Positions 45,185 through 59,687 of a DNA stretch of 64,000 bases are shown here, piece after piece. The notes under the pieces are model-generated. The model was not told the origin of the DNA, made no database searches, and worked only from the letters and a program-made list of their open reading frames with translations. The stretch comes from Escherichia phage AV125. How positions within the stretch are numbered: position 1 is the first letter of the stretch; the number at the start of each line of letters is the position of its first letter. The stretch lies in sequence record OR352955.1; one strand, given 5' to 3'. Made by a program: the position numbers and the translations under genes.

Positions 45185-45213
45185 AGTATAAGTCCCTTCC
45201 GTAAAGTTGTCAA
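45185..45213 (-). promoter_or_regulatory. sigma70-like promoter (TTGACA-17-TATACT) on minus strand
   Basis: Minus-strand -35 TTGACA (plus 45208-45213), 17-nt spacer, -10 TATACT (plus 45185-45190); between the primase-helicase terminator and the next gene. Confidence 0.55.
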
Positions 45214-45229
45214 CAGGTATTTTTAATAA

Positions 45230-45245
45230 AAGGGCCGAAGCCCTT
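45230..45245 (-). terminator. Terminator hairpin at 3' end of primase-helicase gene
   Basis: Stem AAGGGC / GCCCTT with loop CGAA, followed on the minus strand by TTATTAAAAAT; overlaps the stop codon. Confidence 0.4.
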
Positions 45246-47022
45246 AATAATTGCTATCCGTAGGCAAATTAGCAGGATTGTTGAAATACTGCTCTTTGTC
45301 ATGCAGAGTTGCAGTTCTAATGTCATAGTAAAACTGCCCTGCCGGACCAGTTTCCGAGAACTCACGGTTTTTTAGGATAAAGCAATGAGTCGTATTGCGT
45401 TCTACAGGGTCTTCAGCGGCTTTATCTCGTTCCAAAGCCAAGGTAATACCAGCACCTTTAGCCAAGAAACTACTACCCATTGCATCGTCCTCTGTTAAGT
45501 GTTCATTGCCACCATTAGCCGATTTCTTAACGTGTGAGATGACGATAATAGTTATAGCATACTCTTTCATGATGCGCTTCAACCATGTTGCTAACTCTTC
45601 CTGGGCTTGAACATCCATACCAGAAAGCAAATCAGAATAAGGGTCGATAACAAGAATTGTTACTCCAAAATAGATGATCATCTCCAAAACTTTTTCTTTG
45701 ATAGACTCCACATCTGCTCCACGATCATCACACACATAAAAACGTGGTGATCCATCTTCTCTTTCGTAAAAATCTAGGATTTTTTCTTTATTCTCTTCCA
45801 AGATTTGAAATTTCTCTTCCGGTGTTTTCCTGTGTAGAGGAATATGCAGGAACGAGGACAACAGGTTACGAGAATATTTCTTATAAGTTGCTTCCAAGGA
45901 CAGAATACCTAGGGTATGTTCTGGGTGCGCAACAATAATATGTTTGGTGATCTCGTTCACCATCAAAGTTTTACCGATACTGGTCTTTGCCAGGATGACT
46001 GTAATCTCTTCCTCTACTAAACCACCACCCAGCATATTTGCAGCAACACGCATAAAAGGAGGCAAGGTAATCATCTTGGATTCCAAGCATTCTAATGCAG
46101 CTTCATACAAGACATTAGAAGCATAAACACCTGCTGGGGTGTATAGACGAGCACTCCAAAAAGCTTTTACGAAATCTTTTGCACGACCTTCTTCCAGATA
46201 CTGATTGGCATCCTTAAGATCCATCTGCATACGGTAGACTTTGTTACGAGGCAGCACCTTAACAATATTTTCAAATGCCTCATTACCTGCTTTGTCATTA
46301 TCCATGCAAACAATAATCTTCTTAAATTTTTCAAAGAAAGGGTATTGTGCCTGAACTTGTTTATACATACTGGTTTCACCAGTTGTGCCACTAACTACTG
46401 CTGGAAGTTCATATTTGTTGTCCAAGTTTTCAGACAGCATTTGATAAGCTGCCAGAGCATCGTGTTCACCACCTGTAATTACCACAGTATGAGAACGGTC
46501 TGCAAAACGAATTTGTCCAAAAAGATCTACATCTTTACCTACTTGACCAATAGGTTTACTGAAATCTTTAGGATGAATACGACGCTTAAAACCAACCAAT
46601 TCTTTACCGATGGTAGTTGGATATAAACAACTTTCTACTACCATCTGATCCCCTTCCTGACGGTATTCATAACGAACACCATAGAAAGATGAAACTTTTT
46701 CTTTAATGCCTCGATAACCACGTGGGTTGGTTGATGTTTCTTGAACAATTTTACGATGAATCTGTTTATTAAATTCCGAACCCACAATCTCCTCCTCTTC
46801 TTCTAAAACTTCACCATTTTCTCGTAACCATTCTACGCTAGGAATAGTGTATTCACACGCAAAGCACTTAGCACCTTTATGCTCTCCATTAGAATCTAAT
46901 CCATAAACCATCAGGTTATTACGAGAGCGATCCTTGCCATTTTTCATGCAGCGCGGACAACCTGTATGTCCTTCCTTGCTAAGATCAACATCAAATCCAT
47001 ATTTAGTTATAATGTGCGACAC
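45244..47022 (-). CDS. Bifunctional DNA primase-helicase (T7 gp4-like)
   Basis: N-terminal zinc finger CPRC...CFAC; TOPRIM-like VVITGGEHDALAAY and VCMDNDKAGNEA; helicase Walker A KTSIGKT and Walker B ILVIDPYSD. Confidence 0.7.
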   Translation of the reverse strand: MSHIITKYGFDVDLSKEGHTGCPRCMKNGKDRSRNNLMVYGLDSNGEHKGAKCFACEYTIPSVEWLRENGEVLEEEEEIVGSEFNKQIHRKIVQETSTNPRGYRGIKEKVSSFYGVRYEYRQEGDQMVVESCLYPTTIGKELVGFKRRIHPKDFSKPIGQVGKDVDLFGQIRFADRSHTVVITGGEHDALAAYQMLSENLDNKYELPAVVSGTTGETSMYKQVQAQYPFFEKFKKIIVCMDNDKAGNEAFENIVKVLPRNKVYRMQMDLKDANQYLEEGRAKDFVKAFWSARLYTPAGVYASNVLYEAALECLESKMITLPPFMRVAANMLGGGLVEEEITVILAKTSIGKTLMVNEITKHIIVAHPEHTLGILSLEATYKKYSRNLLSSFLHIPLHRKTPEEKFQILEENKEKILDFYEREDGSPRFYVCDDRGADVESIKEKVLEMIIYFGVTILVIDPYSDLLSGMDVQAQEELATWLKRIMKEYAITIIVISHVKKSANGGNEHLTEDDAMGSSFLAKGAGITLALERDKAAEDPVERNTTHCFILKNREFSETGPAGQFYYDIRTATLHDKEQYFNNPANLPTDSNY

Positions 47023-47034
47023 TTTGTTCTCCTG

Positions 47035-47313
47035 TTAAAATGGTTCGTTAGTCTCCATCATATATTCTGCTTCTAGTTCTTCCATGTGCTTTCTAAATTG
47101 GAAAGCAATTTCTGCTACAGTTACATTTAAATCTTTTTCAAAAACTTCTGTAGATCCTTCATAAAAACGAATACCGTCAATTAAAAGCCCTCCGTGGTAA
47201 TCCCAATCGCTTTCACGAGAAAGTGGATTAGGTTCTTCATAATAGTAATCCACCTCCACGACCAAGGCTTTCCCGTTACGAGTGGTGTATTCAAAATCAA
47301 AAGTGTTAATCAT
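47035..47313 (-). CDS. Hypothetical protein
   Basis: 92-aa ORF, coupled to the upstream gene. Confidence 0.3.
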   Translation of the reverse strand: MINTFDFEYTTRNGKALVVEVDYYYEEPNPLSRESDWDYHGGLLIDGIRFYEGSTEVFEKDLNVTVAEIAFQFRKHMEELEAEYMMETNEPF

Positions 47314-48257
47314 TATAGCTCCTCAAATAAAAGTCTACGACGCTCATTCAACACATCAATGTGATAATGAGTCCTGACATACTTAGCTAATGCTAATCCT
47401 TTCTCCATGCAAACATCGGGAGCACTTGATAAGTATTCCGTAATATCTTTCCACTCGGAAGGTGTTTCAGCAAAGAATAACAAATCTTTAAACTCTTGTG
47501 TATGATAATTCTCACGAGGAGAGCAGATTAAAGGTAAACCCTTAGCACCTGCCTCAAGAATTTTAAGATTGCTTTTTGCATTATTAAACACGTTATCGAT
47601 CAATGGTGCAAGACTGATTTGATGACCATCGTAAGATTCCATGTAGTTGGCATATGGTCTTACACCTTCATAAACACAAGTTGGTGCTACATTTTCCCTG
47701 ATTAAAGACCATTCACGACTACTTAAAACTTCAGAATCCCTACGAAAACCACATATTGTAAGATCTTTACCAAAATCGGGCAAGATAGCCAAATCTTGTT
47801 TATGTGTTTCACTTCCAGCCCAGACTAATGGAGTTTTGGAGTAGCGATCACGGGTCAACACAAATTGACCTTCATCGTAAGGAAGTCCATTAGGGATTAT
47901 GTGCACATTATCATTGTATTGTGAAAGTTCAACTTGCAAGGCAGGTGTCGTAGTTGTAACAAGATCACTGTGCTCTAAAAACCATTTTAAATGTTCACGA
48001 ATACCTGATTCAAAAATACCTTCTAACATGTGTCCTTTTGGAATAACTAAAGAGTCATCCAAATCCATAACCATTTTAAAGCCCAGGTTTTTAAGGGCTA
48101 AAAAGCCCTCTTTACCTTTTGTTGGCACTCCGTTAAAAACGAAAACGTTGTGTTTAGGTTGTGAAGAGAACTGCCTTGAGTAAGGCAGCACTACCCTATG
48201 GAAATCGCAGACACTATAATTGATTCCGTTACGATTGTCAAGAATTATTTGTCCCAT
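47313..48257 (-). CDS. Glycosyltransferase (GT-B fold-like), paralog 1
   Basis: C-terminal motif KSNLKILEAGAKGLPLICS typical of GT-B donor-binding domains; paralogous to the adjacent gene. Confidence 0.45.
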   Translation of the reverse strand: MGQIILDNRNGINYSVCDFHRVVLPYSRQFSSQPKHNVFVFNGVPTKGKEGFLALKNLGFKMVMDLDDSLVIPKGHMLEGIFESGIREHLKWFLEHSDLVTTTTPALQVELSQYNDNVHIIPNGLPYDEGQFVLTRDRYSKTPLVWAGSETHKQDLAILPDFGKDLTICGFRRDSEVLSSREWSLIRENVAPTCVYEGVRPYANYMESYDGHQISLAPLIDNVFNNAKSNLKILEAGAKGLPLICSPRENYHTQEFKDLLFFAETPSEWKDITEYLSSAPDVCMEKGLALAKYVRTHYHIDVLNERRRLLFEEL

Positions 48258-48264
48258 ACTTCAC

Positions 48265-49251
48265 CTACAAACTTTCAATAACCTGGCGTCGCAATTCGTT
48301 TGCATCTGCCAGATTATAATGTGTTCGAACATGTTCCGCTAAGAACAAGCCGCGATCTTCCCGATAGTTCGGATTTCGAAGAAGCTTAACAATTTCGTAA
48401 TGCCATTCTGCTTTATTCTCTGCATAAGCAACAGCGCGAGCATCTACAGGGTTAAAATAAGGTAATACCTTAGAACAAACAATCGGAATACCTTTTGCCC
48501 CAGCTTCAAGGATTTTGAGATTACTTTTACAATTATTAAAATCATTATCTACCAAAGGAGCTATAGCAATAGCATGACTTTCGTAAACACTCATGTAATT
48601 ATCTAAATCTTTTACAGCAGCTTTATATTTGGCATTTGGTAAATTTCTACGGATCTTAATCCACTCTTGCCCTGTGATACTCTGCGATGCTTCATATCCT
48701 GCAATAGTAAGAAGTTCATCATCGAAAGTATTAGAGACTAGTCGTAAATCGGGTTCGTGACTAGCACCGCCAGCCCATACAACAGGGGTACCGGATGAAC
48801 GATCATTTGACAAAGTGAATTGTCCGCTATCAAAAGGAAGTGCATTTCGGATCACAACAACATTCCTATTTAAGTGACGGATCTTATATGCCAAATATTC
48901 CGTAGTCACAATGACCACATCGGCAAGCTTAACCATAGCTACAATAGCATGAGTGTTTGACTCATATAAACTTGCTAAATAATGTTCTGGATTAAGTTGG
49001 TAGAAATCATCTAAATCTACAACAATCTTAACACCTTGACGTTTCAGGGACAGAACATATTCTGCCCCTTTAGAATGAATACGGTTAAACACGACAACAT
49101 CTTTCTTAGGCTGAAAATTATTGTTGTTAAATGGTATAACAATACGATGATAATCACAACCACTGTGAGGTTTTGCATCAATTTTCAGTTTAGTCCATTT
49201 TTTATTTGACATGTGCCAGTGCCTCCTCATAAGAAATTCGGATTTTCCCAT
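48265..49251 (-). CDS. Glycosyltransferase (GT-B fold-like), paralog 2
   Basis: Collinear similarity to the 47313 gene (DYHRIVIPF vs DFHRVVLPY; KSNLKILEAGAKGIPIVCS). Confidence 0.45.
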   Translation of the reverse strand: MGKSEFLMRRHWHMSNKKWTKLKIDAKPHSGCDYHRIVIPFNNNNFQPKKDVVVFNRIHSKGAEYVLSLKRQGVKIVVDLDDFYQLNPEHYLASLYESNTHAIVAMVKLADVVIVTTEYLAYKIRHLNRNVVVIRNALPFDSGQFTLSNDRSSGTPVVWAGGASHEPDLRLVSNTFDDELLTIAGYEASQSITGQEWIKIRRNLPNAKYKAAVKDLDNYMSVYESHAIAIAPLVDNDFNNCKSNLKILEAGAKGIPIVCSKVLPYFNPVDARAVAYAENKAEWHYEIVKLLRNPNYREDRGLFLAEHVRTHYNLADANELRRQVIESL

Positions 49252-49885
49252 TTTTAATATCTTCTAAAGACGCTTTATATTCTTCCCAGTTAATGCCAAT
49301 AGCAGCTTCTTTCTCTTCTTTTGTCAGATTAGCAAAAGGCATAGGATTGTTTCCAAAAACATCGTCTGGGTGGATATAAGCCATGATACGAAGTGGACAA
49401 GGTATTGCCTGAATGCCCTGATTCAAACCAGCAGCTTTCAAACGGTGTACCCATTCAGCATCTTCAAAACCATAGCCGTGAGTGTAAGGGCGGAAATAAC
49501 CCATCTTCTCAACAACGGCACGAGAATACATTGCAAATTGACACATTGCAAGTTCCCAGAGAATAACTTCTCCTTTACTCCCAACAACTTTATCTTTGAA
49601 ATACTCCGGCATACCAAAGAAATCCCATCCTCCAGAGACAGCTTGATCTACAAAATATGTTTCCCATCCCTCCATGATTGGGTAGCAATCGTCGTCAAAA
49701 ATAAACCAATAATCATAACCTTCTTCATAAAACTGGTGCATAAGTTCATTCCTGGCGTAAGCTACACCTTTACGATCTGGATCGTTGAATATTCGAAAAT
49801 CTGCATGTGGATCTGTTACAAGATAGTCTTTAAGTGGACGGACACCTACAGTGATAACACCCACTCCGATTTTAATATTTTCCAT
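49202..49885 (-). CDS. Glycosyltransferase (GT-A fold-like, DxD)
   Basis: FIFDDDCYP (DxD) and YGFEDAEW motifs; the 3' end overlaps the next gene by about 50 nt. Confidence 0.45.
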   Translation of the reverse strand: MENIKIGVGVITVGVRPLKDYLVTDPHADFRIFNDPDRKGVAYARNELMHQFYEEGYDYWFIFDDDCYPIMEGWETYFVDQAVSGGWDFFGMPEYFKDKVVGSKGEVILWELAMCQFAMYSRAVVEKMGYFRPYTHGYGFEDAEWVHRLKAAGLNQGIQAIPCPLRIMAYIHPDDVFGNNPMPFANLTKEEKEAAIGINWEEYKASLEDIKNGKIRISYEEALAHVK

Positions 49886-49893
49886 TTTCTCTC

Positions 49894-50457
49894 CTAGATA
49901 GTTTTACTGTGATCGTGACAGTGTAATAAATGATGTATAGACCGTTGAGGATTTGTTTGACCTAATCTGTAAATGTGAAACAGATACATTCCCCGCATCA
50001 ATCCTAACCTTTTTCCTTTTTCATGTAAAGTGCGAGAGAAAATTAGGTCGAATTGGATAGATTTTTCTTCGAAAGGAATTTCATTCCACAATGATTTTCT
50101 AAAAAGCAAAAAGAAACCTGCCAGAGGTGTTCCGAAAGGAACTTCTTCAACACTCACTTTATGATATTCTCTTGCAATCTTAGCATATTCTATATGGTTT
50201 AGAATATTTGGATCATCGTTAATTTGGTTAGAGAAAAGCTGATAACCACTACCTAACCTGTTACAAGTTGCACCTATTACATCAAAAGGCGGGTTTGACA
50301 TAATAAGCTCTTCAAGCATAGATGGTTGATCAGGCAGGAGGAACATTGTATCGGTATCTCTTAAGCACACCCAACTATCATCTGGAAGAACGGCAATAGC
50401 TTCATTGATAGCCTTGCCGATATTTCCTGTCAGATAGGGAGTAATATAATAAATCAT
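49894..50457 (-). CDS. Putative glycosyltransferase (GT-A-like, DxD motif CLRDTDTMF)
   Basis: N-terminal YITPY..GNIGKAINEAI then DTD motif; fourth member of a glycosyltransferase cluster. Confidence 0.3.
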   Translation of the reverse strand: MIYYITPYLTGNIGKAINEAIAVLPDDSWVCLRDTDTMFLLPDQPSMLEELIMSNPPFDVIGATCNRLGSGYQLFSNQINDDPNILNHIEYAKIAREYHKVSVEEVPFGTPLAGFFLLFRKSLWNEIPFEEKSIQFDLIFSRTLHEKGKRLGLMRGMYLFHIYRLGQTNPQRSIHHLLHCHDHSKTI

Positions 50458-50473
50458 TCTCCCCTCCGTTATA

Positions 50474-50665
50474 TTAACTGTCAGCTACAATCCCACGTTT
50501 AATCATTTCTTGTTGGATTTGGATGACACGATCTCGTGCTTCCATATATTCTTTAAAAGATTCTTGGAGATGGTCACGAGCTACATCCCGTAGTTTAATC
50601 AGCTTGTCGTTTGTCACTTCTTGAAGAGAGATCTCGCCAGTTTCATTGGTCCCAAGCGTTTTCAT
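50474..50665 (-). CDS. Hypothetical small protein
   Basis: 63-aa helical, charged ORF. Confidence 0.3.
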   Translation of the reverse strand: MKTLGTNETGEISLQEVTNDKLIKLRDVARDHLQESFKEYMEARDRVIQIQQEMIKRGIVADS

Positions 50666-50873
50666 TTACAACCTCCTTAATAGCTACTGCACAGTTCTTA
50701 CAAATACATTGACCTTTGTTCTTAGAAATTTCAATGTAAGGTTCATTTTCGTTTTCTCCGCGTCGTGAATCGTATATTACAGTATTGAAGCAGACAACGC
50801 AAATGTTTTTAATAACAACATATTTTTGCACTTTTTGTTTAGTGCGAAAATTTACTTCAATGACTTCTCCCAT
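50643..50873 (-). CDS. Small zinc-ribbon protein
   Basis: Track ORF trimmed to the ATG at 50873 that overlaps the upstream stop; Cys pairs CVVC...CICKNC. Confidence 0.3.
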   Translation of the reverse strand: MGEVIEVNFRTKQKVQKYVVIKNICVVCFNTVIYDSRRGENENEPYIEISKNKGQCICKNCAVAIKEVVNENAWDQ

Positions 50874-51157
50874 CAGTGAATCTCCCCTAAAATGTTGTTT
50901 TGAGACATTACTGCGGAGCATTCTACAGCATCATGAGTCCTTGCAAAACGCTCCCACAGCACAGCATCTACTTTAAGAACCATACAAGGATAAATACTGT
51001 CGTTGATCATATCAATGCTATATTTATCTACATCCTTTTCATCTTCCATAAACAAAGTAGCGTATGCTTCCAAATGTTTACGGGTGTAGTATACGTCCTC
51101 TTCGGTAAGACCGACAACCAGGTAACTTGCTACAACAACAGTATTATCTTCTTGCAT
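50873..51157 (-). CDS. Hypothetical protein
   Basis: Track ORF trimmed to the ATG at 51157, the first start after the upstream gene's stop, with AAGGGGAG RBS. Confidence 0.3.
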   Translation of the reverse strand: MQEDNTVVVASYLVVGLTEEDVYYTRKHLEAYATLFMEDEKDVDKYSIDMINDSIYPCMVLKVDAVLWERFARTHDAVECSAVMSQNNILGEIH

Positions 51158-51158
51158 T

Positions 51159-51680
51159 TTAACTCCCCTTTGGTAGATAGAAACCATGCACTTTATCTCG
51201 ATAAACAAGACGCATATCACGCTCCCAGTGTGTCCTTATATTCCGTTTCTTGAAGTATAGAGCACCTTTAGTAACATCTAAAACAGACCGCAATTCAGGA
51301 AAATGTTTCTCTAAATAAAGTAAACGCTCCGCTATTGCTTTTGCTTCCTGCCACTTATCTTTCTCTGTCACGTTAAAAGTTTTCGCATATGAGAATTGCC
51401 CTTTCTGGAACAAGACTCCCTTGACTGTGTTAGGGAAGTAGGCATCATTTCTTCTGTTGATTACCACATTCCCAACGGCATTCATTCCTTTTTTACCCAG
51501 ACCGCGACCTTCTGCGTAAATTGCACAAGCTAATAGAATTTTATCATTATATTGCTTTGTACATTTGTGAACTACTTTAGCGGTTTTTACGTTTGCAGCT
51601 TCGGCTTTCGCCACAACAGGTGTAAATGTAAAAGCAGTTAAGGATAGTAACGCAACTGTTACAAAGTTTTTTATCAGCAA
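51159..51680 (-). CDS. Secreted cell-wall hydrolase, SleB/CwlJ-like (candidate endolysin)
   Basis: N-terminal signal peptide (LIKNFVTVALLSLTAFTFTPVVAKA); Hydrolase_2-like core LLACAIYAEGRGLGKKGMNAVGNVVINRR; TTG start 8 nt after AAGGAGG; own promoter. Confidence 0.5.
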   Translation of the reverse strand: MLIKNFVTVALLSLTAFTFTPVVAKAEAANVKTAKVVHKCTKQYNDKILLACAIYAEGRGLGKKGMNAVGNVVINRRNDAYFPNTVKGVLFQKGQFSYAKTFNVTEKDKWQEAKAIAERLLYLEKHFPELRSVLDVTKGALYFKKRNIRTHWERDMRLVYRDKVHGFYLPKGS

Positions 51681-51712
51681 ATTTTGCCTCCTTTTTAAGT
51701 TAACGAACTTCT

Positions 51713-51741
51713 AGTATAACACGATAGAGGCTTTATTGCAA
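51713..51741 (-). promoter_or_regulatory. sigma70-like promoter (TTGCAA-17-TATACT) on minus strand upstream of the SleB-like gene
   Basis: Minus-strand -35 TTGCAA (plus 51736-51741), 17-nt spacer, -10 TATACT (plus 51713-51718). Confidence 0.45.
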
Positions 51742-51762
51742 GAGGGGGGACTTCTCCCCCTC
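51742..51762 (-). terminator. Terminator hairpin after TerD gene
   Basis: Stem GAGGGGG / CCCCCTC with a 7-nt loop, immediately downstream of the TerD stop and abutting the promoter. Confidence 0.4.
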
Positions 51763-51780: not shown

Positions 51781-52383
51781 TTATGGACATTCATACCATT
51801 CTTTTTTACCACCGAAGGCCATCACCACATCGCAAATATCCAGACCAGCTTTACCTACACCATATGCTTTCAGCTTCCATTCTCCATCTTCACGAACCAG
51901 GGAAGCCACGTGGCAGATTGTGTTGCCAGCTACTTCAGGAGCCAGGAAGTCAAAATCCAGAATTTCCACATTGCGCTCGGAGTCGAAGATTTTAAGCATA
52001 CCTTCAGAAGCATGACCAAAACGTTTCAGACCTGTATCATCATCAATGGTCAGAACAAAGGCAATCTCTTGTGCATCAGGAGAGATTTTAGCCAGAGTAA
52101 TATCAATCTGCTCCATGCTGCCAGTTCCATCACGAACATCGTCACCAGCGAAGGTAGAACGTTCAGGATCAAACTTGTTAGCATAGCAAACCAGATGACG
52201 TGCAGACAGCATTTCAGGATTGCCAGCGGCATTGTGACGACAAACCAGTGCACTTACATCCAGATCCAGTTTAGAATCAGATTTCCAAGAGAATTCCAGA
52301 CGCAGTTCTTTCAGAGCCGGAGCAACTTTCTTCAGGGAAATTTTTTCGCTAGAACCTTTTTTCAGGGAAATTTTATCAGTCAT
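51781..52383 (-). CDS. terD: TerD-domain protein (tellurite-resistance TerD family)
   Basis: N-terminal ISLKK repeats; core TFAGDDVRDGTGSMEQIDITLAKISPDAQEIAFVLTIDD matches the TerD GDxxxG..GDDE..I...L pattern; about 200 aa. Confidence 0.6.
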   Translation of the reverse strand: MTDKISLKKGSSEKISLKKVAPALKELRLEFSWKSDSKLDLDVSALVCRHNAAGNPEMLSARHLVCYANKFDPERSTFAGDDVRDGTGSMEQIDITLAKISPDAQEIAFVLTIDDDTGLKRFGHASEGMLKIFDSERNVEILDFDFLAPEVAGNTICHVASLVREDGEWKLKAYGVGKAGLDICDVVMAFGGKKEWYECP

Positions 52384-52398
52384 CTTTTGTCTCCTCTA

Positions 52399-52668
52399 TT
52401 ATTTAAGTGTAATACCAGTTACAGTCAATTCTACTTCCAAAAGCTTAGATGTGTTTTGGATTGATACTAATTGTGCATGATGGTTTAGTTCTACAGCAGA
52501 ATAATCATTTTCCCCATCATCTACTTTTAAATAAACAATGATTTCACTAAGGTCTAAACCATTTTCGTCAAATGCATTTTCATAGACGAAAGTATCTCCT
52601 ACATCCAAATCTTTGATGGTAAGGCATCGTTTATTTACTTTTTGCTCATCAATTTCGAAGTTTAACAC
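52399..52668 (-). CDS. Small protein, paralog B of a two-member family (precedes TerD)
   Basis: KDLDVGDTFVYENAFDENGLD...LEVELTVTGITLK aligns with the 53690 ORF (EDLGIGATFMYYDAYEDAGLD...VEVDLEVTNITLK). Confidence 0.35.
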   Translation of the reverse strand: MLNFEIDEQKVNKRCLTIKDLDVGDTFVYENAFDENGLDLSEIIVYLKVDDGENDYSAVELNHHAQLVSIQNTSKLLEVELTVTGITLK

Positions 52669-52897
52669 TTCTTCCTCCTAATGTTATCTCCGGTTTGTAT
52701 ATACGAAGAATTATAACATTTTCATTTTCTTTGTCAACCCATTCTTCATAATCAGGCCATACATGAATCTCTACTCTACTTACAATATCTTCCATTCGCA
52801 CAGTCCCAATGAAATACTCTTTGAGACTGCGCATAATGAAAGCTTCTCTCTCGCGCCAATAATTTTCTATGACTTGAGAGGCAAGCTCGTCGATCAT
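52649..52897 (-). CDS. Hypothetical small protein
   Basis: 82-aa ORF between the vWA gene and paralog B; overlapping coupled starts. Confidence 0.3.
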   Translation of the reverse strand: MIDELASQVIENYWREREAFIMRSLKEYFIGTVRMEDIVSRVEIHVWPDYEEWVDKENENVIILRIYKPEITLGGRSVKLRN

Positions 52898-53688
52898 TTT
52901 TTAGCACCTACTTTAACAACCCACTCTCCGAACTCTTCAGATAAGAGTTTGTCATAAAGCTCTGAATCTGTCAAGTCTAAATCTTTAATGCCAATAAAAC
53001 CAACATTATCATAAGCATTTGCCAGTTCTTTCAGGAAGCCAAACTTCTCATTACCAACGCCAACCATGAACCAATAAATAGGTTTATTCTTATTCTCTTC
53101 AATAAGACGACGAACAGCACTAGGATCACCATTCTCACCATCCGTCTGGAAGAATACAACACCAGGGGTAACGTCAGCACCTGGTTCAGACACAGCTACA
53201 ACCTTTTCACGCTCTACAGATACTGTTTCAGTTTTACCAAGCAGACGATTAAAGAAGCCTTTCTTTGGAGCCTCCTCTTGTACCACTTGTTTAGTGGTAA
53301 TATATTTGGTAACAGTGCCAAAATACTCATCGTAGATATCTGCCATTACAGGGGCGTAATTTGTTCCACCTCCGATACGAACATTGCGCATACATTTACC
53401 AACATAGTCATCGTAAACGTCTGCTGTTGCTGGAGTAAGCTCTTGGGAACTCGTATTGAAGGCCCACATATCAATTTGTTGATTATCGTCGAACAGCATA
53501 CCAAAAGGAAGCAGTTTACCTACAAAATCACTCACTACCCCACTAGAATATAGACCATGCATACTACCAGAAATATCTAGAGCACATGCTACACGAAGAA
53601 CAATCTTACCTTCATTCAGGTTCTTATTCTTTTTCAGAGAGAAAGCAAGGTTTTCTTGACGTTTTTTCAGGCTGATTTTCTCGGACAT
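52894..53688 (-). CDS. von Willebrand factor A (vWA) domain protein with TerD-like N-terminal leader
   Basis: MIDAS motif DISGSM in LRVACALDISGSMHG; N-terminus MSEKISLKKRQENLAFSLKK parallels the TerD N-terminus MTDKISLKKGSSEKISLKK. Confidence 0.55.
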   Translation of the reverse strand: MSEKISLKKRQENLAFSLKKNKNLNEGKIVLRVACALDISGSMHGLYSSGVVSDFVGKLLPFGMLFDDNQQIDMWAFNTSSQELTPATADVYDDYVGKCMRNVRIGGGTNYAPVMADIYDEYFGTVTKYITTKQVVQEEAPKKGFFNRLLGKTETVSVEREKVVAVSEPGADVTPGVVFFQTDGENGDPSAVRRLIEENKNKPIYWFMVGVGNEKFGFLKELANAYDNVGFIGIKDLDLTDSELYDKLLSEEFGEWVVKVGAKK

Positions 53689-53689
53689 A

Positions 53690-53986
53690 TTATTTCTCCT
53701 TCTTAAGTGTAATATTGGTAACTTCTAAATCTACTTCCACCATATTTGTATCTGGCGGGATGCAATGAGTATAGCCTCGTTGTGCTAGTGATCCATTAAT
53801 ACAGATCGCACTGTTTGTGGAATTTTTAATGAACACCAAGTTACGGTAGGTATCCAACCCTGCGTCTTCATAGGCATCATAATACATGAATGTGGCCCCT
53901 ATGCCAAGATCTTCGAAAGCAATAGGTAAATCCTGACACTTTTCTTCTTGAATATTGAATCTAAACACGCATACCTCCTCTACCAA
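53690..53986 (-). CDS. Small protein, paralog A (precedes the vWA gene)
   Basis: See paralog B; 98 aa. Confidence 0.35.
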   Translation of the reverse strand: MVEEVCVFRFNIQEEKCQDLPIAFEDLGIGATFMYYDAYEDAGLDTYRNLVFIKNSTNSAICINGSLAQRGYTHCIPPDTNMVEVDLEVTNITLKKEK

Positions 53987-54524
53987 TTTTGAAGCCCAAA
54001 TCGTAAGCTTCTTTAGTGATCTTTTGCAACTCGCTTATAGGAAGTGTTACAAGAGGATCATCTTCTTCAATTTCCATCTTGTCATCTTCTGTTTCAATGA
54101 GAGTATTATGCACTTTATGATAAGGGTTGTCAACACGTTTAAACTTATTCTTTTCTGTGCTGAAGAAACAATCTGGATCTTCTTCACCATCACCCCAACC
54201 TTGATTAGGATCTCTGTCAGATTGTTCTGTAGGGATCTCACCTGTAAAGTACTCTTCCAGCACCATAGCGATGCCGTCCCTTGGATTTGAGGAATGCATC
54301 AAATCACAAACCTTACTCCAATCCATAGCCCAGTCGAACCGTTCACGAACGCCATTTTCATCCTCTTTTCCAGAGAAAACACAACCATAACTATCATAGT
54401 TGCCATACATCTCTTCAATAACAACACCGTCCTTCAAAAGAAAGAGGTAGCAAGGTGATCCGTCGAAAGAAGTAGAAAGGGCAGCTTTGCCCGATTCTTT
54501 GCACAAAAAGCTAAAACAACCCAT
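53961..54524 (-). CDS. Hypothetical acidic protein
   Basis: 187-aa ORF rich in Asp/Glu (EEDPDCFF, ETEDDKMEIEEDDP). Confidence 0.3.
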   Translation of the reverse strand: MGCFSFLCKESGKAALSTSFDGSPCYLFLLKDGVVIEEMYGNYDSYGCVFSGKEDENGVRERFDWAMDWSKVCDLMHSSNPRDGIAMVLEEYFTGEIPTEQSDRDPNQGWGDGEEDPDCFFSTEKNKFKRVDNPYHKVHNTLIETEDDKMEIEEDDPLVTLPISELQKITKEAYDLGFKIGRGGMRV

Positions 54525-54727
54525 TACAAACCCTCCTTCAGATTATCAAGAGCTACAGTGGTTTCACAAAATTCTCCATAAGCTTTATGATGTTCCAGAA
54601 AAGCTTCGGGTCCACCCCAATCATTGTCTTGTGTATTCCAGCCATCAATAAAAGCATCTTCAATGATTGTGATCAGTTCTTGTCGGGTTAACTGGATAAT
54701 ATTAGGGTCGTTATCGTAGTTAAACAT
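54524..54727 (-). CDS. Hypothetical small acidic protein
   Basis: 67-aa ORF; ATG with GAGGAGGAAG RBS. Confidence 0.3.
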   Translation of the reverse strand: MFNYDNDPNIIQLTRQELITIIEDAFIDGWNTQDNDWGGPEAFLEHHKAYGEFCETTVALDNLKEGL

Positions 54728-54893
54728 CCTCTTCCTCCTCTAAAATATGGAACCCGTAATTACAATAGTCCTGAAAGGTTTCGTGTGCAAGATCTTCTAT
54801 ATCCTCTTGAGACATATCATCTTCAATTTCGATATCCACAACCTCATTGCATCCACACCAAGCAGTTTCAATATTCACTCGTAATATTTTCAT
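54720..54893 (-). CDS. Hypothetical small acidic protein (57 aa; not in ORF track)
   Basis: Manual translation MKILRVNIETAWCGCNEVVDIEIEDDMSQEDIEDLAHETFQDYCNYGFHILEEEEDV; ATG overlaps the upstream stop (TAATG) and follows a GGAGGAGGAG RBS. Confidence 0.25.
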   Translation of the reverse strand: MKILRVNIETAWCGCNEVVDIEIEDDMSQEDIEDLAHETFQDYCNYGFHILEEEEDV

Positions 54894-55090
54894 TACTCCT
54901 CCTCCTCATTGAAGTCAATATCTGCAAGGAGTTCGAATTTACGGAAGTTACGACAACCTTCATAAATATAACAATCACGACAAACTGCTAGAACACTTGG
55001 GGGATATATGCCTCCCATCGGCGCGAATCGTTTTTCGTCATCATAACGGACACCAATGTCCTCATCAATTATATAGATACGGATTCTCAT
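54893..55090 (-). CDS. Hypothetical small protein with acidic C-terminus
   Basis: 65-aa ORF ending ...DIDFNEEEE; start overlaps the TelA stop. Confidence 0.3.
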   Translation of the reverse strand: MRIRIYIIDEDIGVRYDDEKRFAPMGGIYPPSVLAVCRDCYIYEGCRNFRKFELLADIDFNEEEE

Positions 55091-56199
55091 TTACCAAGCC
55101 CTCGTTTCACAGCAGCTACCATCCCGTCTTCCAAAGATTGAACTTCATTAATATAATCAACACGAGCAGCACGGGCTTCCGTATTGATGCGGTTAGTTTC
55201 TTCCAACATCTTAACCAAGTTTTCCTGATCGTGACGCAGAGTTTCAATATCCAACACTTGACGGTTAGCCAGTGCTGCTGCTTCGATCTGATTCTGTGTG
55301 GCAAGATCGCTACCCAGTTTAATTGCCAGGTTAAATTCATCAAGAACGTTATTCTGCGACTCTGCTGCTTTCATTTGACGTAAGCTCTCGATATACATTG
55401 AGAAGTTAGCAGAGTAAGCAGGAATAACATTATTTACTATGTTACGCGCAGATCGCATTAAGCTTGCAGAAACTTTTTGCATACCTTGTACACGCGGTCC
55501 CATTTGGACACACAGTAGGCGCAATGCTTTTAAATCTGCAATACGAATCTCCAGAAGATCCAAAGTATCTCGGATCACTTGTCGCTGTTCTACTGCATCT
55601 TCTGGAAGAGCAGCCAAAGCTTGTTCTTCTTTTTCATAGGTTGCTGTTAGAAGCTGCATATCTCGGTTCAAACTTGCAGCATATTGTCCAATAGCTTGAT
55701 GTAGCTTTTCAAGATATACCAAGGAATCTTCTTCTTTGCGAATATCCATTTGAAGGTTTTTTACCAACTCTTCAATACGGTTATTAACATTATCAAACTC
55801 CCCAAACAGATCTTCTTTCATACCCATAACTTTTTTAATGAGTTTAGTAATACCCTTGCTTTGTTTAATAGAGTTTGGATCAAGTTGTTTTGCCTGTTTA
55901 ATCAAAGCTGTGAGTCGTTCACTCATCTGATCGCCTTGATTACTACGTTGATGTTTTAATACCTCGGCATTCAAGGAACGCAAGGTTGTTCCTGCCTCTG
56001 CCCCAATCTCTTCGATCTCCTGTCGGGTCATAGAAGGCAAAACTGGAACTTCTTGCGGTGCCGCTGGTGCATAAACAGGACTGGCATCTAACACGCTTGG
56101 AGCGAATACAGATTTACTTGCATCTGTTGTTGCAGCAAATACGCTCATTTCAGGTTTCTTCTGACAGCCAGTAGCTGCTTTTAAAAATGGACTTGTCAT
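55087..56199 (-). CDS. telA: TelA-like toxic anion resistance family protein
   Basis: 370 aa, largely helical with long heptad-like segments; size and composition as for TelA/KlaA; lies in a cluster with TerD, vWA and TerC homologs. Confidence 0.5.
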   Translation of the reverse strand: MTSPFLKAATGCQKKPEMSVFAATTDASKSVFAPSVLDASPVYAPAAPQEVPVLPSMTRQEIEEIGAEAGTTLRSLNAEVLKHQRSNQGDQMSERLTALIKQAKQLDPNSIKQSKGITKLIKKVMGMKEDLFGEFDNVNNRIEELVKNLQMDIRKEEDSLVYLEKLHQAIGQYAASLNRDMQLLTATYEKEEQALAALPEDAVEQRQVIRDTLDLLEIRIADLKALRLLCVQMGPRVQGMQKVSASLMRSARNIVNNVIPAYSANFSMYIESLRQMKAAESQNNVLDEFNLAIKLGSDLATQNQIEAAALANRQVLDIETLRHDQENLVKMLEETNRINTEARAARVDYINEVQSLEDGMVAAVKRGLGK

Positions 56200-56786
56200 T
56201 CTTCATTCTCCTCTTCTGCATCTCTTATATATGGTGAAACACCGTACTCTTTAGCTACTTTAACCCAATCGTCCCATTTATACAACCATAATTTTCCTTC
56301 GGTCCCTTCTTTATCTGATTTCAACCACATATTAGGTTGCTTACCTGGGTACATGCGATTAGGTTTACGATTATAACCTCTAACACATCTTGTCGCAAAC
56401 CTATCTACCAGAACAAGAACATATTTATATTCGTGGTTCAACGGCTCTTTGGAAGTGGCTTTAGGATTAGCCCCTAACTCTGCTGCCAGTTTTTGCCAAT
56501 GAGCACCGTGTCTACTAAACTTACCCATACAACCATCAATAGCATGAGCAATTTCGTGCTTCATTGTATCCACGATCATATCTCTTGTAGAGTTCTTATG
56601 CAAGTGCCAATTTACAACAACAATTTTATCTCGGTAGTTGCACCAACCGAAAGAGTTATTCACTTTGTTTCTAACACAAGCTTTATATCCTGCTTCACGT
56701 AACATGTTGTAGTAAACAGGAAAATCTTCTTTTATTTCCTGCATCACTTCCCACCACAAGAGTTGCAAGTCTCTCTCGGTATACAT
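56196..56786 (-). CDS. SprT-like zinc metalloprotease domain protein
   Basis: HExxH motif in MKHEIAHAIDGCMGKFSRHGAHWQKLAAELG; acidic C-terminal tail. Confidence 0.5.
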   Translation of the reverse strand: MYTERDLQLLWWEVMQEIKEDFPVYYNMLREAGYKACVRNKVNNSFGWCNYRDKIVVVNWHLHKNSTRDMIVDTMKHEIAHAIDGCMGKFSRHGAHWQKLAAELGANPKATSKEPLNHEYKYVLVLVDRFATRCVRGYNRKPNRMYPGKQPNMWLKSDKEGTEGKLWLYKWDDWVKVAKEYGVSPYIRDAEEENEE

Positions 56787-56789
56787 AAC

Positions 56790-57383
56790 TTACACCTTAA
56801 AAGTGAAATGCGTGGTCGTGGTTTCAAAATCAGGACCAGATAAACGTGCACTGAAATCTGAAATATTTGTAATTAAAAAGCTTTTATGCATACCTAACAC
56901 AGCTACGCTTTCAATATCTTCTACTAACATTTCAATCATGTTAGAAACATGGCTGAACGTAGAGTTTTGTTTTTTGATGGTGTAGAAAGAAAGATTCCCA
57001 CCTGCTGTATAAGATACCTCTTCAAAATCTTTAATGGTATATTGTGTGCCATCAGTAAAGAAAATGGTAGCTTTATTAGTAGCACGTTTCTTGTTTTTTG
57101 GTCCTTTTTTACGTTTACTGCGAGTAGGCAAACCGTTTGGGAACACCATAGCTACAAATTCTTCAGCAGAAACCTCCTTACCGAAATCATAACCATAAGA
57201 AACAGCGTCTATAAACTCGTCATCTTCATTTTTAAAATAATGGAAATAGGGCCAATTTGAAAGATTATCAAGCATCTTATGCTCGTCCACAGCAGAGAAT
57301 GTATCCCTCAAAGCGCGTGTGATTTGCAAAGCATTAGGCAACCTTTTAACACCTACGATGGAAGTACGAATAGAAATTGTCAT
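56790..57383 (-). CDS. Hypothetical protein
   Basis: 197-aa ORF with a basic stretch (RSKRKKGPKNKKRATNK). Confidence 0.3.
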   Translation of the reverse strand: MTISIRTSIVGVKRLPNALQITRALRDTFSAVDEHKMLDNLSNWPYFHYFKNEDDEFIDAVSYGYDFGKEVSAEEFVAMVFPNGLPTRSKRKKGPKNKKRATNKATIFFTDGTQYTIKDFEEVSYTAGGNLSFYTIKKQNSTFSHVSNMIEMLVEDIESVAVLGMHKSFLITNISDFSARLSGPDFETTTTHFTFKV

Positions 57384-57397
57384 TGTTTTTCTCCTTA

Positions 57398-57835
57398 TTA
57401 ACGTCGCTTGCTACGAGATGAACTCTTTTTACTTAAAGGGCTATTGTAAGATTTACGAGTTGTATAGCTACTATTTGTTTTAAAAGTTTGTCTCGGCTTT
57501 TCATAAGTTTTTATCTCTTGTTTAGGCTTACTATAAAAATTAGTTTTCGGTTTAGGTGTATTATAATGCTTATTAATAATCGTTCTGTTATCGTTATAAT
57601 CCCCACTGCTACGATTACTACCGCCACTCATCATATGCCCTAACAACATACCTGTAGCAAACTCACCAACACCGCTACTACTAGAACCGCCACCATTGTT
57701 GATAATAGTTGTATCTCCGTCAGATCCTTGTTGAGCGTATTGTTGAGGAGGTTGTTGGTATTGTGCAGGATTTGTTTCATCCTCGCAAGCTGTTAAAAAG
57801 ATACAACCAATTAAAATCAGGGCTAGTTTTTTCAT
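57398..57835 (-). CDS. Lipoprotein (lipobox LTAC), Gly/Ser-rich
   Basis: Track ORF trimmed to the ATG at 57835; signal peptide MKKLALILIGCIFLTAC with lipobox Cys; overlaps the 3' end of the upstream TM-protein gene in another frame. Confidence 0.4.
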   Translation of the reverse strand: MKKLALILIGCIFLTACEDETNPAQYQQPPQQYAQQGSDGDTTIINNGGGSSSSGVGEFATGMLLGHMMSGGSNRSSGDYNDNRTIINKHYNTPKPKTNFYSKPKQEIKTYEKPRQTFKTNSSYTTRKSYNSPLSKKSSSRSKRR

Positions 57836-58022
57836 ATTTGCTTTCCTCGTTTTGGCTATTAATACATCTGTGTTTGAAATCTCCAGAGAAGCAATAAAGT
57901 TGCTCTCCATCTCGGTATAAACTCACTTTACTGCCGTTGATTACGCTTGTCAATACAAAAATTACAACAAACAACCCTATTGCAAAACAAATATTTTCAA
58001 ACACAACCAACAAGTATTTCAT
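57777..58022 (-). CDS. Small membrane protein with N-terminal TM helix
   Basis: 81-aa ORF; hydrophobic segment LVVFENICFAIGLFVVIFVLTSVI; ATG with GAGGT RBS. Confidence 0.3.
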   Translation of the reverse strand: MKYLLVVFENICFAIGLFVVIFVLTSVINGSKVSLYRDGEQLYCFSGDFKHRCINSQNEESKYEKTSPDFNWLYLFNSLRG

Positions 58023-58369
58023 TTTAAAAATACCTCATCATCAGTTTCATTATCCCAGAAGAACAAGTCCCAACCATTCGGATCATTCCATTTAGCTGCT
58101 GGAGAAGTCCATATTTGCTCGATATCAATATTCAAAACTTCACCGTTTCGTTTTGAAACAGCTTTAGTTAATTCCCAACGGGATACAGGCTCCACTTCCC
58201 CTGAACCACTCCCACAACAAGCTACCACATTAGGAGGCAAATTAATTGGATCTTTGGTCACGATCATAACGCTTACCCCAGGGTAAACTTTTGAAAGATA
58301 ATCTAAAACGTAATCCACATCACCAGATAAATCCCAAACAAGTTCTTGAATTTCATCAAAATTACTCAT
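58019..58369 (-). CDS. Hypothetical protein
   Basis: 116-aa ORF; start after a terminator hairpin. Confidence 0.3.
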   Translation of the reverse strand: MSNFDEIQELVWDLSGDVDYVLDYLSKVYPGVSVMIVTKDPINLPPNVVACCGSGSGEVEPVSRWELTKAVSKRNGEVLNIDIEQIWTSPAAKWNDPNGWDLFFWDNETDDEVFLK

Positions 58370-58387
58370 AAGTCTCTCCTATAAAAT

Positions 58388-58405
58388 AGCCTCCCGAAGG
58401 AGGCT
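58388..58405 (-). terminator. Terminator hairpin after TerC gene
   Basis: Stem AGCCTCC / GGAGGCT with loop CGAA, followed on the minus strand by ATTTTAT. Confidence 0.5.
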
Positions 58406-58411
58406 CATTTA

Positions 58412-59386
58412 TTAAACAGTAGCTTCTTCTTTTTCAGGGAAGATAAAGCTTGCAATAACACCAAGAGATAATGTGCCTAGAACAATCATCAGACTTACGT
58501 TAGGGGAAATATCATGCGGGAGGAATGACCACTTGGCATGAAGTGTTTCACCGAACGGGTGATACATAAGTTTAGCACCAACAAACACCAGAACCACAGC
58601 AACAGCTTTCTCTAAGTGAACCAGATATTTCACAGCTACACTTAACACAAAGAAAAGTGCACGTAAACCAAGAACAGCCATCAGCATTGCAGAATAAACT
58701 AGCAGAGGTTCTTGTGTCACACCGATCACAGCCGGAACTGAATCAAAAGAGAAGACAATATCTGTAAGCTCAATAACAAACACACAAAGAAGAGCAGGAG
58801 TTGCATATTTAATACCATTCTTAATGGTGATGAACTTTTCACCATCCAGTGCATTGTGCACAGGCAGAACTTTACCTACTAAACGAACAGCCCAATGTTT
58901 AGAGTAATCAATATCCTCTTCTTCGTCACCACCTTTGATGATAGCCACGGCAGACCAAGCTACAATCAAACCGAACAACACTTGGACCGACCAATGAAGG
59001 TTAAACAAAGCGGTCCCTGCTGCAACAAAAATACCTCGGAAGACAATGGCTCCTGCAATCCCCCAAAGTAGAATCTTATGTTGGAGATGTGTGCTCTTAA
59101 TTCCAAAGCTTGCAAAAATTGCCATGAACACCATTAGGTTATCTACAGAAAGACTCTTTTCCAACACATAGCCACTTAGGAAAAGCGCGGCAAACTCTTT
59201 ACCATGTTCTACCCAAATGAATGCGTAATACCCTAAAGCTAAAGCAATCCAAAAAACAGACCAAAGCAAAGCAGATTTAATTCCAATTTCTTTATTCTCT
59301 TTATGACCAAAGAAATCGATACCAATAGACAATGCTAAAATACCAACTAAAACAACTACATCAATAATTGGGAAACCGAGTTGCAT
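58412..59386 (-). CDS. terC: TerC-family integral membrane protein
   Basis: 324 aa with multiple hydrophobic helices throughout; size and topology consistent with the TerC family; in the Ter-like cluster. Confidence 0.45.
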   Translation of the reverse strand: MQLGFPIIDVVVLVGILALSIGIDFFGHKENKEIGIKSALLWSVFWIALALGYYAFIWVEHGKEFAALFLSGYVLEKSLSVDNLMVFMAIFASFGIKSTHLQHKILLWGIAGAIVFRGIFVAAGTALFNLHWSVQVLFGLIVAWSAVAIIKGGDEEEDIDYSKHWAVRLVGKVLPVHNALDGEKFITIKNGIKYATPALLCVFVIELTDIVFSFDSVPAVIGVTQEPLLVYSAMLMAVLGLRALFFVLSVAVKYLVHLEKAVAVVLVFVGAKLMYHPFGETLHAKWSFLPHDISPNVSLMIVLGTLSLGVIASFIFPEKEEATV

Positions 59387-59465: not shown

Positions 59466-59687
59466 TTATTTTGTTGAATGAGAGGAAAAGATTCCTCGTA
59501 ATACCGCCAAAATAAACGAAACACAAACCACGGTCCAGAAGGTTACTGGGACAGTGATATCTGCATGACCCATAACTTCAGCAACATAGTTGTAAGCCAG
59601 CAACAGTAACCAAGCTGGAATCAAACTAAGCATAAAAGCAATAACAAAAAAGCTTACCACTGCAACAATACCTGCAAAAACACCCAT
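59466..59687 (-). CDS. Small membrane protein (two TM helices)
   Basis: 73-aa ORF with two hydrophobic segments; immediately upstream of TerC. Confidence 0.3.
   Translation of the reverse strand: MGVFAGIVAVVSFFVIAFMLSLIPAWLLLLAYNYVAEVMGHADITVPVTFWTVVCVSFILAVLRGIFSSHSTK

Follow-up and report, generated by a model that had tools for sequence, protein, structure and literature searches.

The window analysed here, a stretch of 64,000 nucleotides from Escherichia phage AV125 (record OR352955.1), carries on its minus strand a gene for a SleB/CwlJ-like protein at 51159–51680. We propose, with a probability of roughly 0.5, that this protein is an accessory, exported, lytic-transglycosylase-like muralytic enzyme that would thin or remodel the sacculus during infection, and that it is probably not the main endolysin of the phage. 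The reading is built on the open reading frame (ORF) with its domain, predicted fold and catalytic Glu, on the export signal, on the promoter architecture and gene context, and on the co-occurrence of the gene with a canonical endolysin gene. The gene and its 5′ region comprise the following features.

51159–51680, minus strand: coding sequence of the SleB/CwlJ-like (Hydrolase_2) protein, 173 amino acids, TTG start, TAA stop.
51171–51548, minus strand: catalytic Hydrolase_2 domain, about residues 45–170, from the Pfam match, the orthologue profile and the predicted fold.
51510–51512, minus strand: codon of Glu57, predicted to be catalytic and unchanged across every homologue in the alignment.
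51603–51680, minus strand: predicted Sec signal peptide, residues 1–26, with n/h/c layout; signal peptidase I would most likely cleave behind residue 26 (AKA), less likely behind 24 or 28.
51687–51693, minus strand: Shine-Dalgarno sequence AAGGAGG, 6 nt upstream of the TTG start.
51713–51721, minus strand: extended −10 element TGT-TATACT, of a geometry conserved in orthologous loci.
51736–51741, minus strand: −35-like hexamer TTGCAA, with a 17-nt spacer to TATACT (51718–51713).
51742–51762, minus strand: GC-rich hairpin GAGGGGGAGAAGTCCCCCCTC directly after the TerD gene, −14.4 kcal/mol, terminator-like, with no U-tract here.
51510–51741, minus strand: conserved block over the promoter, the 5′ untranslated region (UTR) and codons 1–57, in which nucleotide and synonymous divergence are unusually low.

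No in-frame start is possible upstream of the TTG codon. The protein matches Pfam Hydrolase_2 (PF07486) over profile positions 3–100 of 100 with 64.1 bits and an E-value of 2e-17 (gathering cut-off, 27 bits), and its match in PHROGs is phrog_938, "endolysin". For the profile we used the protein and 19 orthologues of 56–98% identity (n = 20) from a word-index protein search, which covers close relatives only; the wider distribution given below comes from tblastn of phage records. Among solved structures the profile matched only the SleB catalytic domains 4F55 and 4FET, and in this alignment the invariant Glu57 falls on the Glu of the SleB YGESRGE motif, which we take from the SleB structure papers to be the catalytic residue. 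The AlphaFold2 model has a predicted local distance difference test (pLDDT) score of ~90 for residues 35–170, and residues 1–31 are disordered with a score below 50. Foldseek against the PDB returned SleB catalytic domains only (4FET_A/B and 4F55 at E ≤ 0.001; probability 1.0, TM-score 0.69–0.73). The phage protein thus has the fold, the Y-x-E-x-R-G motif and the catalytic Glu in common with the catalytic domain of Bacillus SleB, a germination-specific lytic transglycosylase, but it differs from SleB in having no N-terminal peptidoglycan-binding domain and no YpeB partner, and the two are ~25% identical. No peptidoglycan-binding domain was found in the protein and no YpeB-like gene among the neighbours of its gene. 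The NCBIfam SleB equivalog TIGR02869 matched with 52.5 bits against a cut-off of 236.5, the match being confined to residues 37–117. Judged from its sequence, the phage protein is not a true spore cortex-lytic enzyme SleB. The E. coli host has no cortex and its wall lacks muramic-delta-lactam, so that the substrate recognition of the phage enzyme must differ from that of SleB.

The N-terminus of the protein reads MLIK / NFVTVALLSLTAFTFTP / VVAKA↓EA and is laid out in n-, h- and c-regions like a Sec signal peptide, a heuristic call made from these regions and an AXA site. It contains one basic residue, a hydrophobic core of 16–17 residues (10-residue Kyte–Doolittle maximum, 2.2), Pro at −5/−6 and three AXA sites, ending at residues 24, 26 and 28. 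The mature part, which has no second hydrophobic stretch, is small and basic, with a computed mass of ~17 kDa and an isoelectric point (pI) of 9.9. N-terminal export signals were present in all 19 orthologues and in the homologues of rV5-like, T5-like and PAK_P3-like phages, i.e., in four phage lineages, and a signal peptide has been reported for the Certrevirus homologue (PMC7344957). In addition, Cys40 and Cys52 are invariant in the orthologues, which would fit a periplasmic, possibly disulfide-bonded protein. A canonical holin-dependent endolysin is cytoplasmic and has no export signal, whereas the SleB-like protein carries a predicted one. An earlier note on this DNA had claimed both a SleB-type catalytic core and a signal-peptide-like N-terminus. 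The former is borne out by the PF07486 match, the Glu57 alignment and the SleB-only Foldseek matches, and the latter by the n/h/c layout, the AXA site and its conservation in orthologues.

The window comes from a phAPEC8-like phage of the genus Phapecoctavirus, subfamily Stephanstirmvirinae. Its 5′ end lies inside the terminase large-subunit gene, next comes the structural module, and then a minus-strand replication and Ter-like module. The 2.1 kb around the SleB-like gene are 99–99.9% identical to Escherichia phages ESCO25, ESCO13, nieznany and phAPEC8_ev052. Phage nieznany encodes a soluble T4 e-like lysozyme of 166 residues, which contains the EGLKLTVYQDHLGYWTVGIGH motif, lacks a hydrophobic N-terminus and shares 48% identity with T4 e along its entire length. 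The lysozyme gene (L002:23055–23712) lies ~64 kb from the SleB-like gene, between glutaredoxin and PhoH genes and after a dTDP-rhamnose pathway, with no membrane-protein neighbour. The terminase gene is directly preceded by an Rz/Rz1 spanin pair (N-terminal transmembrane domain, TMD; lipobox), which falls barely outside the window. With an identity of ≥60% required, 132 phage records contained the e-like lysozyme and 131 the SleB-like protein, so that the two co-occur throughout the subfamily, the T4 e-like lysozyme being present in all 132 related records. The dispersed lysozyme and spanin genes resemble those of T4, where e, t and the pseT.3/pseT.2 spanin genes are scattered and e lies apart from the holin gene t; to our knowledge, T4 has no exported SleB-like enzyme. 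Two "lytic proteins" have been described in Phapecoctavirus (PMC10793346). Our searches found no specific literature on the lysis genes of phAPEC8 and phi92, and no mutant data on a lysis requirement of the SleB-like gene in the literature searched.

The proteins flanking the SleB-like gene have no hydrophobic or transmembrane segments (a raw scan for hydrophobic ORFs was too noisy for direct use), confirming the claim of the earlier note that no holin-like gene is adjacent. The note took this as consistent with an export route by signal peptide or signal-anchor release (SAR). Because the lysis genes are scattered and the soluble lysozyme gene likewise lacks a neighbouring holin gene, a missing adjacent holin is not diagnostic of export. 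For the same reason, the distance of the gene from holin and spanin genes says little. The note had also held that a canonical endolysin–holin cassette elsewhere, with this gene dispensable, would speak against its proposal; a canonical endolysin is indeed encoded elsewhere, as seen in near-identical genomes.

By themselves, the TTGCAA and TATACT hexamers with their 17-nt spacer score 9/12, which is unremarkable. We compared ten orthologous loci, some from lineages whose proteins are only 58–75% identical, and the same layout recurred: the hairpin, TTGC[AC]A, exactly 17 nt, TGnTAnnnT, 29–32 nt, GGAGG and TTG. The hairpins have folding energies of −14 to −18 kcal/mol; their stem sequence varies while the pairing is kept, and TTGC[AC]A follows immediately. 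In view of this recurrence in diverged loci, the promoter of the SleB-like gene is very probably real and the hairpin is a conserved element. The promoter described in the earlier note is therefore present (51741–51713), with a TGn upstream and a geometry kept in ten loci. The terminator said to precede it survives as a conserved GC hairpin and lacks, in this phage, a U-tract and a call by the terminator scanner (fold z-score, −1.6); in a relative (L011) the hairpin has a proper T-run. With such a hairpin, transcription may run on from the TerD gene into the SleB-like gene, and of the claimed transcription independent of the Ter-like genes the dedicated promoter stands whereas the insulation by a terminator is doubtful.

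The TTG start behind a strong GGAGG was kept in every orthologue examined (loci L008, L009, L011–L013, L016–L019 and L021; window, 51678–51680), and the conservation of so rare a start suggests selection for low translation of an exported enzyme. The host sigma-70-type promoter and the position at the head of a gene array ending in primase/helicase suggest early/middle rather than late expression. In related rV5-like phages, which have no RNA polymerase of their own, promoters of the sigma-70-like kind are assigned to the early/middle phase (PMC7344957). Thus, of the proposal that the gene is a candidate endolysin, the domain, export signal, promoter and lack of an adjacent holin hold, whereas the step to the endolysin of this phage is weak, given the e-like lysozyme and the early/middle context.

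Consistent with an accessory role, exported SleB-like proteins also accompany other lysis systems. SleB-like homologues were detected by tblastn in 1088 phage records. Those of Vequintavirinae (CB7_83, CR3_087 and rV5-like phages), Demerecviridae (T5.083) and Nankokuvirus (PAK_P3 gp151) are single-domain Hydrolase_2 proteins of 149–187 residues with an N-terminal export signal, and are encoded in early or DNA-metabolism regions, apart from the other endolysin of each phage. They are only 33–37% identical to the window protein, and their neighbours differ: rIIA/rIIB in rV5-like phages, an exonuclease gene and tRNA-Arg in T5-like phages, and ligase/helicase in PAK_P3-like phages. Glu57 is nevertheless invariant in all of them and in the 20 orthologues, within a Y-G/A-E-x-R-G motif. 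In T5 the canonical lys/holin/spanin cluster is located at 20–23 kb, apart from T5.083, whose position at 42.3 kb falls among annotated promoters of the early region (PMC3326045, PMC11180984) and just beyond the deletable tRNA region of that phage. Nankokuvirus G1 has its endolysin, a small ORF and Rz/Rz1 at 48.6–50.3 kb after the tail genes, and its SleB-like gene beside ligase and helicase. In rV5-like phages, which carry a separate GH19 or M15 endolysin (PMC7344957, PMC11370258), the homologue adjoins rIIA. The RNA-seq late/early log2 fold change of PAK_P3 gp151 was 0.62 and not significant, suggesting that this homologue is already transcribed early. In the Henunavirus Erwinia phage pEp_SNUABM_01, a 76-residue protein with two TMDs is encoded between the SleB-like gene and rIIA (L010:3536–3766), and it matches the candidate class II holin reported beside the Certrevirus homologue.

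We regard the following sequence as the most likely. The SleB-like gene would be read by host RNA polymerase from the dedicated sigma-70-type promoter with its extended −10 element, opening the early/middle array that closes with primase/helicase, and the weak TTG start would keep the dose of the enzyme low. The Sec machinery would export the precursor and signal peptidase I would free the 17-kDa enzyme into the periplasm, where a SleB-type active site centred on Glu57 would cleave the glycan strands of peptidoglycan. The accessory enzyme may speed or assist lysis, while terminal lysis would most likely be carried out by the soluble T4 e-like lysozyme, a putative holin and the Rz/Rz1 spanins, encoded elsewhere.

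Several observations weigh against an accessory role. In both RefSeq and PHROG the gene goes by the label "endolysin". The e-like lysozyme and the spanins were seen in near-identical relatives, outside the window itself. T5 lys and hol are also in an early region (PMC3326045), so early placement is compatible with an endolysin role. In Certrevirus and Henunavirus (Vequintavirinae), a holin-like ORF with two TMDs immediately follows or overlaps the homologue, and the two together look like a pair of exported endolysin and pinholin. An early-made exported muralytic enzyme would, moreover, be expected to do harm if neither its dose nor its activity were held back. Finally, PMC10698182 contradicts PMC7344957 and our analysis on the signal peptide; here the sequence evidence appears to favour a signal peptide.

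Alternatively, the SleB-like protein could be a functional or co-equal endolysin, exported by Sec without a holin hole and held until membrane depolarisation, with the e-like lysozyme redundant or serving another purpose. The precedent is Lys44 of Oenococcus phage fOg44, which infects a Gram-positive host. Lys44 has a signal peptide that is cleaved off, is reportedly the sole endolysin of that phage and is encoded in a lysis cassette together with a holin. A cleavable signal peptide on a muralytic enzyme is likewise predicted here, in silico, and export would likewise be independent of a holin lesion. However, a Lys44-type enzyme would be the sole or principal muralytic lysis enzyme, whereas here a canonical soluble endolysin coexists and the SleB-like gene sits in a replication-gene array. 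In addition to the export signal with an intact active site, the database labels and the two-TMD ORF in Certrevirus and Henunavirus, a role as endolysin is favoured by the toxicity of the CB7 homologue when expressed in E. coli (stated in PMC7344957, data not shown there) and by our search of ten small membrane proteins of phage nieznany against PHROGs and Pfam, in which no holin was recognised. Against it, every subfamily member keeps a full-length T4 e orthologue, T5-like and PAK_P3-like phages keep the exported SleB-like gene alongside complete canonical lysis clusters, and the gene combines a host-type promoter heading a replication-gene array with a conserved weak start. The two-TMD partner, too, is a feature of other phages: tblastn with the Henunavirus ORF found no homologue in the nieznany, rV5-like, T5 and PAK_P3-like loci. 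We therefore consider an endolysin function of the SleB-like protein unlikely.

The protein might instead have no part in lysis and act as a periplasmic auxiliary enzyme of peptidoglycan turnover during infection, possibly by recycling anhydromuropeptides and feeding UDP-sugars to the downstream glycosyltransferases, or by an envelope change together with the Ter-like module. Such a role has been proposed for PAK_P3 gp151, which Chevallereau et al. regarded as an auxiliary peptidoglycan-degrading enzyme, explaining a rise in UDP-GlcNAc-type precursors (PMC4933390). The early/middle placement and the low dosage suggested by the TTG start agree with it, and so does the composition of the array, which the gene heads and which contains four glycosyltransferase-like genes, as well as the dTDP-rhamnose pathway carried by relatives. 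These points are purely circumstantial, however; one relative (L012) has no such glycosyltransferase genes downstream, and the T5-like, rV5-like and PAK_P3-like homologues have different neighbours. We see only a slim chance for a purely turnover-related function.

SAR endolysins such as P1 Lyz and phage 21 R21, which work with pinholins, have a Gly/Ala-rich uncleaved N-terminal domain. The SleB-like protein resembles them in its N-terminal hydrophobic segment, which would engage Sec, in its Gram-negative host and in that it would need no large-hole holin, raising the idea that an uncleaved segment tethers an inactive enzyme until a pinholin collapses the proton-motive force. The conservation of the signal peptide core could be read in this way, as pairwise identity among the 20 orthologues was 81% for the core against 70% for the mature domain (catalytic centre, 86%; cleavage region, 53%). 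Ala, Ser and Thr make up 8 of the 19 core residues, the invariant Cys40 and Cys52 lie near the active site, and the PAK_P3-like homologue has a longer, anchor-like, Gly/Ser/Ala-rich segment without an obvious cleavage site. Nevertheless, the core of the window protein contains no Gly, and a Pro at −5/−6 and small residues at −3/−1 follow the hydrophobic core in all orthologues, giving a conserved predicted signal-peptidase site instead of the N-terminal TMD of a SAR endolysin, again by heuristic assignment. The cleavage sites of the rV5-like (VKIKIFAIILSAFLSLPVVA↓AP, site VVA↓AP) and T5-like (MKAALLLIAALTYSFNSHA↓TY, site SHA↓TY) homologues are of the textbook kind. No pinholin candidate is adjacent, several uncharacterised small membrane proteins being encoded elsewhere. 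Together with the nucleotide-level nature of the conservation described next, these features make a SAR mechanism highly improbable.

The conserved block extends from the −35 element to the catalytic Glu codon. In a codon alignment of six lineages, the identical codon was kept at 71–87% of conserved positions in codons 1–57 (a range from the five closer lineages), compared with 31–45% in codons 58–163 and 45–56% in neighbouring genes. The pairwise synonymous divergence (dS) of codons 2–57 was 0.18–0.64 in the five closer lineages, while codons 58–173 were saturated; for comparison, dS was 0.84–2.3 for the highly conserved TerD gene and ≥1.6 for the vWA gene. The conservation is thus largely at the nucleotide level and reaches codon 57, and it is not specific to the membrane segment. 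An overlapping gene is not its cause, as no plausible ORF exists in the other frames or on the opposite strand. A conserved RNA structure of the 5′ UTR and the first 170 nt was also rejected (single-sequence z-score 0.01; alignment fold without covariation support), as were an Rfam family, where the only hit was a chance match to the hairpin, and a repeated genomic motif, the block and the promoter both being unique within the window. Remaining candidates are the boundary of a recombination block, codon constraints linked to export or dosage, or a regulatory element. The C-terminal two thirds of the gene evolve fast (nonsynonymous divergence, dN, ~0.33; dS saturated), and the protein scores far below the SleB equivalog cut-off, but a decaying remnant or a non-catalytic peptidoglycan-binding protein is hardly credible in view of Glu57 and 19 other positions invariant over four phage lineages at 33–59% identity, the confident fold prediction and the retention of the gene in more than 1000 phage records.

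The distribution of the family allows a broader and more tentative idea. Large virulent phages that infect Gram-negative bacteria and belong to four unrelated groups (phAPEC8/phi92-, rV5-, T5- and PAK_P3-like) keep an apparently early/middle, Sec-exported SleB-type enzyme beside a complete canonical lysis system. Its job may conceivably be a controlled turnover or remodelling of the wall, either precursor recycling for glycosylation or a pre-weakening of the sacculus, with the dose in the phAPEC8/phi92 lineage perhaps set by the TTG start and a nucleotide-level element over the promoter and codons 1–57.

The SleB-like gene itself is an ordinary one, a further copy of a known and annotated gene. 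It is 99.9% identical to genes of Phapecoctavirus annotated "putative cell wall hydrolase" or "endolysin", and is already annotated in more than 100 genomes as "putative cell wall hydrolase (SleB)" or, in RefSeq, "endolysin". The deposited Stephanstirmvirinae orthologues (phAPEC8 "putative cell wall hydrolase SleB", ESCO13 gp226, nieznany gp193 and phi92 gp170) have proteins 68–100% identical and the same synteny (TelA, vWA, TerD, SleB-like gene, small ORFs, primase). The hairpin and promoter in front of the gene and its TTG start recur there as well, with no difference of substance. For related phages, the signal peptide, the separation from the remaining lysis genes and the pattern of "two endolysins" have already appeared in print; an accessory, early/middle, exported enzyme in place of an endolysin is what our comparison would add. 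The distinction matters because RefSeq/PHROG and lysin surveys count the family among Gram-negative phage "endolysins", and enzybiotic work uses such lists. If the protein is an accessory periplasmic enzyme made early, this label is misleading and a widespread phage function in the envelope of the infected cell is still to be characterised. The mature 17-kDa domain of pI 9.9 is also a small candidate muralytic enzyme against E. coli, with a natural export signal that eases testing.

The surroundings of the gene on the minus strand include the following features.

51781–52383, minus strand: TerD-domain protein, the upstream neighbour and last of the TelA / vWA-TerF / TerD group, with synteny kept in metagenomic relatives.
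45244–51157, minus strand: co-oriented, tightly packed downstream array of three small ORFs, four glycosyltransferase-like genes, one small ORF and primase/helicase.
45225–45243, minus strand: canonical terminator GGGCTTCGGCCC+TTTTATT after the primase/helicase gene.
45213–45185, minus strand: TTGACA-17-TATACT, a sigma-70-type match, 11 nt after that terminator.

The genes of the downstream array are separated by at most 16 nt or overlap, with no minus-strand terminator between the SleB-like gene and primase/helicase, and we infer that the array shares a transcription unit with the SleB-like gene. A terminator or terminator-like hairpin followed by a host-type promoter, found both at the SleB-like gene and after primase/helicase (45185–45249), is the punctuation of units in this module. 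The four glycosyltransferase-like genes of the array lie at 47313–50457, and all four are missing from the same position in the relative L012; the one at 49202–49885 gave a sub-threshold match (E 0.0018) to the TET-associated glycosyltransferase PF20691. Also downstream of the SleB-like gene, a small ORF at 50643–50873 (minus strand) has a zinc-ribbon-like CxxC...CxxC pattern (VVCFNT...CICKNC) and no family match.

On the other side, the Ter-like module occupies 51781–59386 of the minus strand, with the TerD gene followed by genes for a vWA-TerF-like protein (52894–53688), TelA (55087–56199) and a TerC-like membrane protein (58412–59386), and its synteny is kept in metagenomic relatives. Just upstream of the TerC-like gene, at 59466–59687 (minus strand), a 73-residue protein of holin size has two or three transmembrane segments. 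Its sole match is a PHROG of unknown function, and TTGACA-16-TAAGAT and a 5′ hairpin come after its gene. At 57398–58022 (minus strand), in the interval that separates the TelA gene from the TerC-like gene, we observed a lipoprotein-like ORF (MKKLALILIGCIFLTAC..., with a lipobox) and an 81-residue ORF with an N-terminal transmembrane segment, which would be further envelope-targeted phage proteins.

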